From Candidatus Omnitrophota bacterium (lineage in GTDB: Bacteria > Omnitrophota > Gorgyraeia > Zapsychrales > Zapsychraceae): a DNA stretch of 64,000 nucleotides. Below the pieces are notes generated by a model, which was not told the DNA's origin, did no database searches, and saw only the letters and a program-made list of their open reading frames with translations. Position 1 is the stretch's first letter. The number at the start of each line of letters is the position of its first letter. The position numbers and the translations under genes are program-made. Location of the stretch: NCBI GenBank assembly GCA_035292445.1, contig DATDQB010000003.1:9692-73691 (forward strand). The letters run 5' to 3'. Below are positions 10,881 to 16,955 of the stretch, piece by piece.

Positions 10881-13800
10881 TTATTTTAATTCCAAAAGCG
10901 TTTGGGCCGTAACCGCCTGGCCGTTGTTATCCGTGGCCTTGAGCCGGACAATCCATTCGCTGCTGCCGCGTAAATATTCTTGGATCGGCAGATGCGCCAC
11001 CCAATCATGGGCCGCCTGCTGGGTAAATGGCCCGGCCACCTGCTCAAATTTGCTGGCGTGCTTGCCCTTGCCCAGCTCAACGACAAAATCCTTGAAATCG
11101 CCGCGCGCGGTGGCGAACACATCCACCGATTCCATTTTCTTTTTCTCATCGAGATTGATCCTTGTTTCATTGATCTTCAAGGTCAGCTGGCCGTTCACAT
11201 CAAGCCGCAACGCGGAGGCCGCATCAAGCATTCCCGCTCCTGATTCGCCGTCCCAGCCTTCTTCGTACATTTCAACGGCCGTGCGGTCCAAAATATCTTC
11301 GATATCGTAATTGGTCAAATCCGGGTTCTGCGCCAATAACAAAGAAGCCGTGGCCGCGACCATCGGCGTTGAGAACGACGTTCCCGAGCGCGGAAGGCAT
11401 CCTTGCTTGACAACGGAAGGCTTAAGTTTTTTGCCCGTTCCGGTGGCCAGTATCGAATAAATGGCATCGCCGGGCGCCAGCACGCCGTTATTCGGCCCCC
11501 AGTTGGAGATGGTGCTGCGGTTGCCTTCGAAATCAATAGCGCCGACGGCAAACGCGCCTTTGTTGGAAGCGGGGCCGTGCAGGCCTATATTCTCATTCAC
11601 ATTGCCACTGGCGACCGCTACAAAAACACCTTTGGCCCAGGCATAATTCAATGCCGCCTGCTCCAAATCCGATGGGACACGCGCGCCCAAGCTGACATTG
11701 ATGATCTGCGCCCCATTATCGACCGCGTAAAAGATGGCGCGGGCAATCAAAAGGCTATTGGTCTCTCCCATATCATCGGCCACTTTGACCGGCATGATGA
11801 CCGCGCCGGGGTTGATGCCGGCAATACCGATGGCGTTATTGGTTTTCGCGGCAATGATGCCGGCGACGAACGTGCCATGGCCTTCCAGGTCCGTCAGGTC
11901 ATTACTGTCATCCAAAAAATTCCAGCCGTTGACGTCATCCACATAACCGTTTTGGTCGTCATCAATACCGTTATTGGGAACTTCTCCATCATTGCTCCAG
12001 ACATACTGCGGCGCGTCCGGATGGTTGAAATCAAATCCGGAATCAATGACCGCGACAATCACGTTTCTTTTCTCTTCATCGACAACGTTCCAGGCGGAAT
12101 TGGGATCGCTCAAGGGCGTAAAGCCGATGTCATGCAACCCCCATTGATGCTTGATCTCCTTTTCCTTGTCGGAGCCGGCCGTTGTCGCCCCGATCGTCCC
12201 GAGCCCCATTTTCATTTCACTGCCCAGCGCGAACATTTTAGGCTCCTTGGAACTTCCCAAGATGCCGAATAATTTTTTCCTCTTTTTCTCGACCGGCGCG
12301 GCGTAGAACGGGTCATTAGGCACGACAGCCGGTTTCGCCTCTTCCTCTTTCTTCTTTTTCCCTTTCTTACCGTCTTCTTCCGGTTCAGGCGTAAGAGCGC
12401 TGGTGATCTTGTTAATGATCTTCGCCTTGGCCCGGTCAAGTACTCCCTGCAATCCGCCTTCGCGTAGCGCCAAAACCTGGTCACTCGCTGACTGTGCTTT
12501 TTGAAGAGCCTCCATCACGGCGTTGGGATTATTCTTTAACATCGATTGCGTGATGACCTCAACGGGTTTGCCGTGCGCGTCCAGGATCGCCAGCGCTTTT
12601 TCTTTACCTGAATTGCCGCAAGCGACGATGGGGCCGCCCGTTGACATATTCTTGCTTGGGTCTTTGCCGTATTGGGAGCCTCCGCCTCCACCCGATGACT
12701 CTCCTGATGAGGCCGGCGCCTCTTTGGGCAACGGCTCCTGCTTGAAATCTTTTTCGAAACAATTGTCGGCGTATTTGCCGCTTTTTTCCATGCTTTGCTT
12801 TAACAGATCGCCCATGCTGCCCATACTGATGGAGGTGTTCAACATGCCGAAGGCGCTGGAGGCACCGGGCAACATCCCGGCCAACTGCTTAAGCGCATCC
12901 CCGGGGTTGGCGACCTTGGCCAGGGCCATGACCTGCGAAGGCACAAATCCCTGTGCGCCGCCGGCTTGCTCGAGAATATAACGTCCGCGCGGCGTTTCAA
13001 TGATAATGATGACCCATGTGACTTCAATTGTTGTCGGACGGATGCATTGCCTGCAAATCATACGTGTGCCGCCTGGCCCGGCGACCGTGTGCTTGCCGGG
13101 AACACAAATGGTCCCGGGGCGGCACATAACACAGCTGCTCGCTTCCCCGTATTTCTCGCAGCTCTCCGGATATTCGCATTTATAACAGTTAGCGGGCGTG
13201 CCCGTGCTTTGATACACGCCTGTTGTAAAACCGGATGAAACGCGCGCCCCGGCCGGGACACATTTCCCGCCTTCGATCACGCACTGTTGGCATCGCGTGT
13301 ACGGGAAATTAGGCTCAAGGCATTCACGAAATAAACTTGTTAAAATACAAACATGGCAAGCCGCTCCGTTTAACATGATCTCTTCGCATTGACCTATCGA
13401 GCAAGGGTTGGGCGTGCAGCCGCCGGGGGCATAGTCATAATAATCGCAGGACTCGGCCACCGCTGTTTTCTTGACGCAATCATGGCAGGCCTTATCCTTG
13501 ACCATGGTCGGGACACAAACTTCATCGCCGGAACACTGCCCCGGGCAAGGGCCGGGCAGCATCTCAAAAGATTCACAACTTTCTTCATGTAATAACCCGC
13601 CTTGGCACTGATGGCATTGGCCTTCCGAAATGCATATCTGCCCTTCCGGACAGGAATTGGCTTGGCATGTGCCGAGCGACCAGCCGTCGAAGCAATCAAC
13701 CCCTTCCTGCATGCAGTAATGGCATGTTTTTCCTTCATCAGTTACCACCTGGTCACACTCATAACAATCTTGAGGACACGGCCCCGGTTCATAAGGAGGC

Positions 13801-16800: not shown

Positions 16801-16955
16801 TTGGGGTCGTTGACATCGATACCCTGCGGCTGCGCCGTTTGGGCAAAAGCGATATCGGAGAAACTCTCTAGGGGGGATATTATTAGGGAAGCGCCGACAA
16901 CCAACAATGTTGCCGCGCTCATGAAGAAAATATATTTTAAGGTTTGCTTGAGCAT
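10881..16955 (-). CDS. giant secreted protein: cysteine-rich tandem modules + disordered spacer + subtilisin S8 peptidase + C-terminal beta domain
   Basis: 2,024 aa. Signal peptide. About 1,250 aa of roughly 25 modules with spacing G-x-C-x4-C-x5-C-x5-6-C-[HYF]-x-C, joined by poly-Pro/Thr linkers (KPPPPPV, PPEPPPPPPKPK, PTTTPPPG). A Gly/Lys/Glu-rich low-complexity stretch follows. Then a subtilase with catalytic D (VIVAVIDSGFD), H (LEGHGTFVAG) and S (GTSFSTPMVAA). Confidence 0.9.
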   Translation of the reverse strand: MLKQTLKYIFFMSAATLLVVGASLIISPLESFSDIAFAQTAQPQGIDVNDPNNKVPEKIKNAYNMLADLATFGDGEGNEEDAFCKSKLLGTSSQETCAQTCPKPDLSCKVVQTHKAANNPELSEDTNCYGCAAAISCYDLGYIYNWPDCMWCEANPKKVCVSAVTFPAIAGIGGGAFPLPSDPSGRQCWDCIDRKDQCKDIWPGTTWDATCGGACLIDEVCQKMGVHPDGYDCHQCVKKPPPPPVSCYDLGLIYQADCPKCPPKLPNCAPANLFVGLVADDKGVVCFACFEDVPPEPPPPPPKPKVCADYGFRTPACDCGPSQILVNQAFPDGLGGQISCCRCEKDPCYPDLTFDKCKECEAAGKMCMGMTTVRGDVPCYRCIEKYKPPETCQEAGFPTSCNPHPCSANEDCSMQDIVLSSSKKVKCAVCELKDEPPPPNQCEEYGGYLDCSECFKRMLRCKFKPVGDRHGLRCYFCEEPCYDPNAKFGNCQPGICPEDMDCTDTQDGCHLCNPKPECEHGYYESSNCGGQCEPKKEQCVVEFALAGETPCYHCEEIETCADYEAYEDGSCNGKCKDNQRCESWGADSYWAKMSGLNCFECVDVECPPGSAPGVCKPGLCPDGQQCTTVGDYCHTCEQPVTQPPPKCEDSLEGPCAPGSCSEDQSCVPVGNECHLCEEKPKTTPQCPDGTQPGPCDSHSCSSDQECVEQDNCHQCRSKPKECGQTYASGSCSPFPCQSGEVCQSYRDCFRCVAMDDQLCQDGLKDGLCPGDCSADQICQMAGTHCYQCVAKPEDCPSSYVPGRCQPIPCKRGDVCQGLAHGCFRCVAMDDQRCQDGLKDGLCPGDCSADQICQMAGTHCYQCQEKTRTQPECPQGTTQGACTQSSCSSDQECVPAGENCHRCQQKKKTCEDMGMTDGEGCVNSGCVQEGGKCVQKTQDDYGVWCWECKMKPTTTPPPGCQSDADCDDGLFCNGAETCGQDGKCLPGDPPCHGQECDEATDECKDKKSCHDLGKMTHGGCAESCPNPSVNCVPGEYDEQGNRCYSCKYYDECLPPYEPGPCPQDCYECDQVVTDEGKTCHYCMQEGVDCFDGWSLGTCQANSCPEGQICISEGQCHQCQGGLLHEESCESFEMLPGPCPGQCSGDEVCVPTMVKDKACHDCVKKTAVAESCDYYDYAPGGCTPNPCSIGQCEEIMLNGAACHVCILTSLFRECLEPNFPYTRCQQCVIEGGKCVPAGARVSSGFTTGVYQSTGTPANCYKCEYPESCEKYGEASSCVMCRPGTICVPGKHTVAGPGGTRMICRQCIRPTTIEVTWVIIIIETPRGRYILEQAGGAQGFVPSQVMALAKVANPGDALKQLAGMLPGASSAFGMLNTSISMGSMGDLLKQSMEKSGKYADNCFEKDFKQEPLPKEAPASSGESSGGGGGSQYGKDPSKNMSTGGPIVACGNSGKEKALAILDAHGKPVEVITQSMLKNNPNAVMEALQKAQSASDQVLALREGGLQGVLDRAKAKIINKITSALTPEPEEDGKKGKKKKEEEAKPAVVPNDPFYAAPVEKKRKKLFGILGSSKEPKMFALGSEMKMGLGTIGATTAGSDKEKEIKHQWGLHDIGFTPLSDPNSAWNVVDEEKRNVIVAVIDSGFDFNHPDAPQYVWSNDGEVPNNGIDDDQNGYVDDVNGWNFLDDSNDLTDLEGHGTFVAGIIAAKTNNAIGIAGINPGAVIMPVKVADDMGETNSLLIARAIFYAVDNGAQIINVSLGARVPSDLEQAALNYAWAKGVFVAVASGNVNENIGLHGPASNKGAFAVGAIDFEGNRSTISNWGPNNGVLAPGDAIYSILATGTGKKLKPSVVKQGCLPRSGTSFSTPMVAATASLLLAQNPDLTNYDIEDILDRTAVEMYEEGWDGESGAGMLDAASALRLDVNGQLTLKINETRINLDEKKKMESVDVFATARGDFKDFVVELGKGKHASKFEQVAGPFTQQAAHDWVAHLPIQEYLRGSSEWIVRLKATDNNGQAVTAQTLLELK
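14370..14813. repeat. two near-identical 222-bp tandem direct repeats inside the Cys-rich coding region
   Basis: The DNA segment starting acattgataacaatgtgtcccggccatttgacaaatttgatccgc occurs at 14370 and 14592 with only a few substitutions. It encodes the duplicated 74-aa unit RCVAMDDQxCQDGLKDGLCPGDCSADQICQMAGTHCYQC... Confidence 0.75.

Follow-up and report, generated by a model that had tools for sequence, protein, structure and literature searches.

How should we read a gene that sets 1,220 residues of cysteine-rich repeats in front of a subtilisin-like protease? The question is raised by a 64,000-nucleotide stretch of a Candidatus Omnitrophota contig (GenBank DATDQB010000003.1, positions 9,692 to 73,691; this whole stretch is the window), in which one open reading frame (ORF), 10881..16955 on the minus strand, encodes a protein of 2,024 amino acids (aa). 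A preliminary description of this DNA had named three functions for the repeats: a surface stalk or adhesin carrying its own protease, a metal-binding array, and a precursor of knottin-like peptides. The first fits best. Our preferred reading, to which we assign a probability of roughly 55%, is that the protein is a Sec-exported, thermitase-like subtilase mounted on a chain of disulfide-bonded modules that acts as a stalk or adhesin, for extracellular or cell-surface proteolysis.

From N to C terminus the protein consists of a signal peptide, an array of Cys-rich modules, two intervening segments (mid A and mid B), a thermitase-like S8 domain and a C-terminal beta-sandwich; all of these are encoded on the minus strand, and their nucleotide coordinates are given below in brackets. 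The ORF, the Pfam scan and the map of cysteines bear out the described order of a Cys-module array before an S8 domain. A Pfam scan of the 2,024-aa protein returned Peptidase_S8 alone at E ≤ 1, with no P-domain and no furin-like match. The Sec-type signal peptide (aa 1-38; 16842..16955), with a hydrophobic core at about aa 8-28 followed by AFA-Q, is the sole hydrophobic stretch of the protein in a Kyte-Doolittle scan, and orthologues of this giant protein have classical cleavable signal peptides.

Peptidase_S8 (PF00082) covers aa 1630-1908 (11232..12068) with 174.1 bits against a cut-off of 21.8 (E = 5e-51), and the motifs VIDSG (1636-1640), HGT (1693-1695) and GTSFSTP (1858-1864) lie where they had been placed. 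The triad runs in the order Asp-His-Ser (D1638, H1693 and S1860), with the oxyanion Asn, N1785, in SGNVNEN (1783-1789); the catalytic Asp and His are invariant among 81 relatives, and the Ser and the oxyanion Asn are present in at least 90% of them. With its active site intact, the domain is predicted to be catalytically competent. We modeled aa 1205-2024 (820 aa) with AlphaFold2 (AF2) from the 81-sequence family alignment A1 (predicted local distance difference test [pLDDT] 82, predicted template modeling score [pTM] 0.82). The catalytic domain and the sandwich (aa 1605-2024) are modeled at pLDDT above 90; the former has the subtilisin alpha/beta fold, with Foldseek template modeling scores (TMt) of 0.82-0.93 to 3vv3, 1thm and 1st3, and a Foldseek search with the 820-aa model matched on the S8 core only (TMt 0.8-0.9 to deseasin, thermitase and subtilisins). 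In sequence, the solved catalytic domains nearest to it are those of AK.1 protease, deseasin MCP-01 and thermitase. All NCBIfam subtilase subfamilies score below threshold, the best being the type VII secretion system (T7SS) mycosins (TIGR03921, 190.7 bits against a cut-off of 278.75). The C-terminal domain (aa 1925-2024; 10884..11183), without a Pfam match, is modeled as seven strands over aa ~1925-2022 at pLDDT above 95, in keeping with the beta domain that had been described there, and local phmmer finds it in 139 of 153 family proteins.

The array spans aa 84-1304 (13044..16706) and holds 170 of the protein's 173 cysteines. Cutting the sequence at each C-x2-C exposes a repeating six-Cys unit of the general form C-x7-12-C-x2-4-C-x4-7-C-x5-27-C-x2-C, and with a relaxed pattern (C-x5-12-C-x1-5-C-x4-7-C-x3-30-C-x2-C) we recovered 25 modules without overlap; in 500 shufflings of these residues the number averaged 4.7 and never passed 10. 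The rest of the array consists of an 8-Cys insert (aa 959-1002, with CQSDADCDDGLFCNGAETC; 13950..14081; no Pfam match) and of six-Cys modules of atypical form at aa 307-343 and 1051-1081. The relaxed pattern gives the description's figure of about 25 modules; the full array has 27 six-Cys modules plus the one insert. Cys5 is followed by H, Y, F or W in 23 of the 25 (C-[HYFW]-x-C), which agrees with the near-invariant His or aromatic residue noted beside the last Cys pair; of the spacing proposed at the outset the repeating six-Cys unit is real, but the exact form matches 8 modules only. The linkers, described as poly-Pro/Thr, are short (3-11 aa), with Pro as their commonest residue (17%); some are Pro-rich, and only a few contain true poly-Pro. 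The insert type (CxxDxDCDDGxFCNGxExC...) is unlike the six-Cys module and recurs, at times several-fold, in other giant members of the family introduced below (P0125, P0140, P0143 and P0082), which also hold another Cys-rich type, DPCxxVxCPxxTxC.

We then asked whether the module belongs to any known domain family. A module profile (A2), built from 50 modules and having the six Cys as its only invariant columns, found 39 proteins at E ≤ 1e-3 among 1.84 billion representative proteins. By BLAST, nearly all of these carry the mid region, S8 domain and C-terminal domain of the window type or are fragments of such proteins, and one is a genuine eukaryotic EGF-repeat protein, matched weakly; as far as this search can see, the module appears specific to one subtilase family. 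NCBIfam gave no match for the module on the whole protein, a PDB sequence search with the profile gave no significant match, and Foldseek with a module model gave a best E of 5-9, none significant, the neighbors being EGF-like (Pfs28, MSP1) and HER2 Cys-rich domains. AF2 models a single module as a beta-hairpin (pLDDT 91), the outcome of a check that the preliminary description had proposed. The other check, a hidden Markov model (HMM) search of isolated modules and of the whole protein, found no known family above gathering score for the module: the Pfam scan of the 50 isolated modules gave marginal matches only, to the Opy2 motif in 14 of them (best E 8.5e-4, all below gathering score), to EGF2_RECK in one (E 0.063) and to Zn_ribbon_10 in one. 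The suspicion that the architecture was unfamiliar is supported: no curated library or solved structure covers the module, and we found no description of the architecture in the literature searched. What is new here is a small six-Cys module absent from curated libraries, together with the S8 subfamily that bears it, and not a new principle.

The stretch between array and protease had been described as a roughly 250-aa Gly/Lys/Glu low-complexity spacer followed by a propeptide-like segment, a picture that is mostly replaced by two conserved, folded segments. Mid A (aa 1305-1414; 12714..13043) comprises the IEVTWVIIIIETP strand, further strands, helices and a GGKY.DNCF motif; its pLDDT is mostly about 80-92, dipping to about 50-70 near aa 1325-1334 and 1345-1374. 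In the model the hairpin of the last module (aa 1266-1304, pLDDT about 80) directly precedes the IEVTWVIIII strand, which is followed by further strands and three helices. Mid B (aa 1425-1504; 12444..12683; pLDDT 80-96) is a unit of three strands (GPIVACG...KALAILDAHG...VEVIT) plus helices. Both segments are conserved across the family. Local phmmer finds mid A in 86 proteins, 82 of which also have modules, and mid B in 105 of 153 family proteins, including module-less members that have Plug or FecR domains at their N-terminus. Disorder or low complexity holds for aa ~1415-1424 and for two parts of the flexible, low-pLDDT region aa 1505-1607 (12135..12443), namely a Lys/Glu tether (aa 1505-1544) and a basic Gly-rich insert (aa 1555-1604), which are disordered in the model. 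Between these two parts VPNDPFYAAP (aa 1545-1554; PNDPFY at 1546-1551) is modeled at pLDDT 87, and in the 81-sequence alignment PNDP has an invariant D, with P342 and P345 nearly invariant; QWGL marks the start of the catalytic domain. The insert includes KKRKKLFGILGSS (aa 1557-1569), and at this same place (12249-12287) the family conserves a basic-hydrophobic motif, KKKKLLGILGSS, within about 50 disordered residues between PNDPFY and QWGL; thermitase has a few residues there. The propeptide-like segment does not resemble I9: no PF05922 match was found at E ≤ 1, and the predicted order of elements before the S8 domain is beta-beta-beta-alpha-alpha-alpha, not the beta-alpha-beta-beta-alpha-beta of I9. 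A word-index protein search with the mid region only (12321-13043) gave no matches, which reflects the sensitivity limit of that search, the last 720 aa having returned a 100%-identical and many 50%-identical proteins. Weak matches of the mid region to TALE repeats in the PDB sequence search, with no single stretch passing, were judged compositional and set aside.

The giant protein is not the one-off that it had seemed to be. Searched alone against 5.8 billion clusters, the array gave one match, P0001 (1,890 aa, 36% identical, with the same S8 end), whereas the last 720 aa gave 3,483 matches, the best ~70 of which cover 98-100% of the query, supposed spacer included. Among the 120 matches listed most have no source name, and the named ones are almost all Candidatus Omnitrophota/Omnitrophica S8 peptidases. 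We defined the family by an ordered series of elements, every one of which is present in the window protein: mid A (IEVTWVIIIETP, GGKY.D.CF), mid B (GPIVACG..AL.I.DA.G), PNDP[LFY]Y, the basic KKKKLLGILGSS insert, the S8 domain and the C-terminal sandwich. As in other members, a six-Cys module lies immediately upstream of mid A in the window protein. Typical relatives, of 1,000-1,100 aa, begin with a signal peptide and an acidic Asp-rich region; a lone C-W-Q-C and two modules of the window type come next, and then the IEVTWVIIIETP segment with the rest of the C-terminal half. The number of modules, from 0 to 37, is an evolutionarily variable parameter of the family: most members have two, and about 25 cluster representatives have 9-37, the largest being P0127 (37 modules, 268 Cys, 2,762 aa). 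Cysteines number 17-19 in typical members, 35-88 in a few, 151 in P0001 and 173 in the window protein, one of the longest forms in a family whose named members come almost entirely from Omnitrophota metagenome-assembled genomes. The eukaryote-like look remarked on earlier is analogy only: the GC content of the gene matches that of its neighbors, and the family is native to the phylum. A scan of genome collections with the family alignment, which contains generic S8 motifs, returned mostly unrelated subtilases among the matches listed, with one Omnitrophota locus (L007). No second family member and no further copy of the module was found in the 64-kb window.

Within the window protein the modules share a mean non-Cys identity of 21%, and the gene has one DNA-level repeat, a 123-nt sequence at 94% identity and 222-nt spacing that marks where two modules were recently duplicated as a unit, in tandem (aa 752-825 and 826-899; 14259..14702). 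All modules outside this unit have diverged at the DNA level, and the presence of just one such repeat argues that the array is old and diverged. Particular modules are nonetheless recognizable between proteins by position. Modules 1-4 match modules 1-4 of P0001; outside the Cys, the module at aa 872-902 is 80% identical to its P0001 counterpart and 84% identical to that in P0126; and for the module at aa 909-947 (14115..14231) the figures are 88% in P0126 and 47% in P0001, for proteins whose S8 domains are 62-69% identical to that of the window. Judged by these identities, the array is old and partly under position-specific constraint, and such conservation argues for binding in some modules rather than for a homogenized spacer. 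The aa 909-947 module, of the strongly conserved subtype C.DMG...GG.C...DD[YF]G..CW.C, occurs in ten family proteins and is a candidate specific binding unit.

Downstream of the giant gene, after a gap of 2 nt, lies a YceI-family gene with its own signal peptide (10322..10879, minus strand; Pfam YceI, E 2.6e-25), followed by genes for a GT-C glycosyltransferase of the PMT type, a tetratricopeptide repeat (TPR) protein and a methyltransferase, and then by a gene for a PMT_2+TPR protein on the opposite strand; further TPR and GT-C genes are found upstream. YceI is directly downstream in five of six distinct giant loci (the window, L001, L087, L088 and L089, and not L005); the same gene order in Logan contig L002 is not counted separately, that contig being a second assembly of the window locus. 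It is YceI, and not the TMTC-like enzymes, that accompanies the giant form as a conserved partner: the proposed pairing with TMTC-like (PMT_2/TPR) genes does not recur as a conserved feature in six other loci, no adjacent PMT_2 gene is found in L001, L005, L087, L088 or L089, and we rejected the link. An upstream run of NrdR, BFN and CCA-adding enzyme is common to three of L001, L087, L088 and L089. A member with ten modules (P0055) sits among GT2/GtrA and methyltransferase genes. Two-module members (L003, 1647-12097; L004, 504-12034) have a secreted protein of 1,591-2,113 aa directly upstream and a DUF8367 gene directly downstream; the large upstream proteins of the two loci are 57-60% identical and have no Pfam match, the L004 operon begins with PilM_2 and PilO, and no homologue of the large protein was found in the 64-kb window.

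Exactly six cysteines are present in 85% of 687 segments from family proteins, and two modules are informative when compared between orthologues (the evidence on Cys loss comes from such comparisons, an HMM tabulation being fragmented at the variable Cys4-Cys5 loop). The second module has six Cys in the window protein and P0001, but in P0122, P0133 and P0136 Cys2 and Cys4 are both lost, with the C-E-A-[ND]-P context of Cys3 retained. Orthologues of the aa 307-343 module fall into three classes: those that keep Cys2 and have no Cys4 carry an extra Cys beside Cys5 (CCxC), those without Cys2 are also without the extra Cys, and a third class lacks Cys2 and has both Cys4 and the extra Cys. All three fit a Cys2-Cys4 disulfide with a movable partner and none fits a two-knuckle, four-ligand zinc site, which argues that the modules are probably disulfide-bonded. 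The extra Cys would sit across the hairpin, which fits a shift of the Cys2-Cys4 partner to a neighboring strand position; in typical members a lone CWQC hints at a Cys5-Cys6 pair that can exist by itself; and, if the pattern is EGF-like, Cys1 would pair with Cys3 and Cys5 with Cys6. A metal store, sensor or redox element, with zinc-ribbon- or metallothionein-like sites at the Cys2/Cys3 and Cys5/Cys6 knuckles, could draw on the C-x2-C present at both knuckles in 160 of 581 six-Cys modules, on the marginal Zn_ribbon_10 match of a single module (E 0.0011), on the frequent His after Cys5 and on the often anaerobic habit of the phylum. We nevertheless regard it as improbable: the Cys2-Cys3 spacing varies from 1 to 8 across family segments, with 3 the commonest, the His exchanges with Y, F or W, the protein is Sec-exported, the (non-significant) Foldseek neighbors are disulfide domains and not zinc ribbons, and Cys2 is dispensable when Cys4 is lost too or when a Cys beside Cys5 replaces it. 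Heme binding is rejected, there being no CxxCH motif in the protein.

The knottin-precursor reading, in which the C-terminal protease would cut the linkers and free about 28 disulfide-rich peptides (toxins, inhibitors or signals), is still less credible. The modules are numerous, peptide-sized and fused to a protease, and S8 proteases mature cyanobactins, although the match to the PatA/PatG family is far below cut-off (79.4 bits against 421); but the 3-11-aa linkers have no common recognition or cleavage motif, the ordinary family form has two modules only, individual modules are conserved by position between orthologues, and the model has the last hairpin directly followed by the strands of mid A, a segment that occurs almost only with modules, which fits a single structural unit. 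A single cut is another matter. The mature chain of thermitase begins just before PNDPYF, for which reason the tether before PNDPFY is a natural candidate processing site, and the subtilase might cut its own Lys-rich tether there, freeing the array with mid A and mid B as an adhesin or matrix product, the mid region serving as a non-I9 folding chaperone or inhibitor. The invariant or nearly invariant PNDP docks on the catalytic domain between disordered stretches; family members have a hydrophobic pair (VV, II, VI, IL or LL) directly before it, which suits subtilisin subsites; the mid region is predicted to pack on the protease (pTM 0.82); and without I9 some other element must aid folding, if aid is needed. 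On the other hand, many I9-less subtilases, mycosins for example, retain their N-terminal extension, and the idea is compatible with a stalk, not exclusive of it. We hold such self-processing to be doubtful, while giving it more weight than either the metal or the knottin alternative. An assembly artifact, in which array and protease are not one gene, we consider negligible. It could point to the 123-nt repeat inside the array, where a short-read contig does break: L002 (run SRR3989295), assembled independently, shows no difference from the window between aa ~852 and the stop or on through five downstream genes, and ends inside that repeat. This is an ordinary short-read break, which leaves the assembly in doubt at one point only, the number of copies of the duplicated two-module unit. 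As to architecture, a chimera is refuted: in place of the break at the spacer that would have betrayed one, the junction from modules through mid region to S8 is identical in the independent assembly; the full-length homologue P0001 has the layout of the window protein; at least 20 other proteins from different samples have the parts in the same order; and base composition is uniform along the ORF and like that of adjoining genes.

We return to the preferred reading, a protease on a stalk or adhesin. After Sec export the protein would fold oxidatively outside the cytoplasm, its N-terminal 1,220 aa forming about 28 tiny, independently folded, disulfide-bonded beta-hairpin modules on short, partly Pro-rich linkers. 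The array would then be a long, semi-rigid stalk, a multivalent binding surface or both; by analogy with tandem EGF-like arrays a stalk could be several tens of nanometers long. The hairpin of the last module would lead into the strands of mid A, to be followed by mid B, the flexible Lys-rich tether, the protease and a stabilizing sandwich, so that the array would set the reach or attachment of the protease. The YceI protein, a co-transcribed lipid-binding protein, probably acts in the same envelope or extracellular process, and extracellular or cell-surface proteolysis is the most likely role of the whole. Parts of this account we infer: that the protein goes beyond the periplasm, that it serves as a stalk or adhesin, what its substrate is and whether it cleaves itself in the tether upstream of PNDPFY. 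Several observations weigh against it: the protein has no C-terminal transmembrane segment, sortase motif or lipobox, and a surface stalk would need some other attachment; evolution supports one disulfide pair only, Cys2-Cys4; many Omnitrophota are anaerobes; gene neighborhoods outside YceI differ between loci; and a neighbor-joining tree built on the catalytic region has a star-like shape in which giant and two-module forms are not set apart and a single origin of the giants is neither supported nor contradicted.

Thermitase-like subtilases (MEROPS S8A; 1THM, AK.1 1DBI and deseasin MCP-01 3VV3) share the catalytic sequence and fold, the D-H-S triad, the oxyanion Asn and PNDP[FY] at the start of the mature domain; the window protein differs in having no I9 propeptide, in its basic Gly-rich insert of about 50 aa between PNDPFY and QWGL, in mid A, mid B and the preceding 1,220-aa Cys array, and in a sandwich without a Pfam model. 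Mycosins are subtilases without a classical cleaved I9 propeptide and supply the best NCBIfam match; unlike them, the window protein, which scores below their cut-off, has no C-terminal membrane anchor or ESX gene context and belongs to another phylum. Its nearest kin are the unnamed S8 family itself (P0003-P0060, annotated 'S8 family serine peptidase'), with 41-57% identity over the last 720 aa and the same six-Cys module. Typical members differ from it in having two modules and an acidic Asp-rich N-terminal region, and an operon that places them between the 1,591-2,113-aa protein and the DUF8367 gene, whereas in the window protein the modules number about 28 and the conserved N-terminal one is different, and YceI lies downstream.

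For the array, the closest flavor is EGF-like. EGF-like and furin-like repeats are likewise six-Cys modules of ~35-45 aa with a two-stranded hairpin, in long tandem arrays, and the proposed Cys2-Cys4 bond agrees with the EGF pattern; unlike EGF domains, the module has Cys5 and Cys6 just two residues apart, and no EGF-family Pfam match is found on the window protein at E ≤ 1. The fungal Opy2 Cys-rich motif (PF09463) is a single-copy, eight-Cys motif in a membrane protein; it resembles the module as a 35-aa extracellular Cys-rich unit, but all the module matches fall under its gathering score of 22.1 bits, and no relationship is shown. In function the closest analogy is with PACE4/PCSK6 and PC5/6, secreted subtilases also fused to tandem Cys-rich repeats. 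They are of the kexin subfamily, with an I9-type prodomain, a P domain and a furin-type Cys-rich region that is C-terminal, where the array of the window protein is N-terminal. In PACE4 and PC5A the Cys-rich region tethers the secreted enzyme to the cell surface or matrix (PMC9656567).

Published work portrays Omnitrophota as epibionts or predators whose very large surface proteins in some cases contain S8 domains, and does not describe the S8/module family (bioRxiv 10.1101/2023.11.21.568195). One may imagine that the stalk lets an ultra-small epibiotic or predatory cell hold a subtilase tens of nanometers off to attack the protein surface layer of its host or prey, with YceI handling the lipids of the contact, module number as a fast-evolving parameter of reach or host range, and conserved modules such as the DMG...DDYG type as receptor-binding units; we offer this as speculation that is unlikely to hold. 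The phylum is known only from metagenomes and a few co-cultures, and if the enzyme does act in cell-cell contact it would offer a tangible effector candidate, open to expression, for a way of life that is otherwise deduced from genomes. Should it be just a nutritional secreted protease on a spacer, its value would be confined to annotation, through a new domain, a new subfamily of S8 and YceI as a conserved partner. In either case a small disulfide-rich domain family outside curated libraries is tied so far to a single protease family, and copy numbers of 0 to 37 in homologous enzymes constitute a natural experiment, comparable to animal EGF arrays, on how repeat arrays set reach or binding.

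Other features of the window deserve brief mention. An unusual density of GT-C (PMT_2/PMT) membrane glycosyltransferases and long TPR proteins, with a methyltransferase, flanks the giant gene at 4594-10338 and 18635-24572, and includes at 18635-20212 a 525-aa membrane protein without a Pfam match; orthologues of the giant gene do not share this setting. Three tRNA-Ser genes (anticodons GGA, CGA and UGA) lie at 4236-4322, 24680-24767 and 27799-27885, the second adjoined by a phage-integrase-SAM-like ORF (24827-25588), and a seryl-tRNA synthetase gene is found at 43503-44786. A cluster resembling type IV pilus or type II secretion systems occupies 29916-41917 (PilO, PilN, PilM, a pseudopilin with an N-methylation motif, T2SSF and T2SSE) and encloses an FHA-GAF-histidine kinase (32298-33998) and a Ser/Thr protein kinase (34008-35375). 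The stretch 50000-59535, of low GC content (0.33-0.42), contains an IS200-like transposase (51687-52295) and two RHS-repeat proteins with Big_7/Ig domains (53730-57395 and 57340-59535), and may be an acquired toxin island. Just before it, a 216-aa ORF (49234-49884) encodes a Lamin Tail Domain (PF00932, E 2.8e-18).

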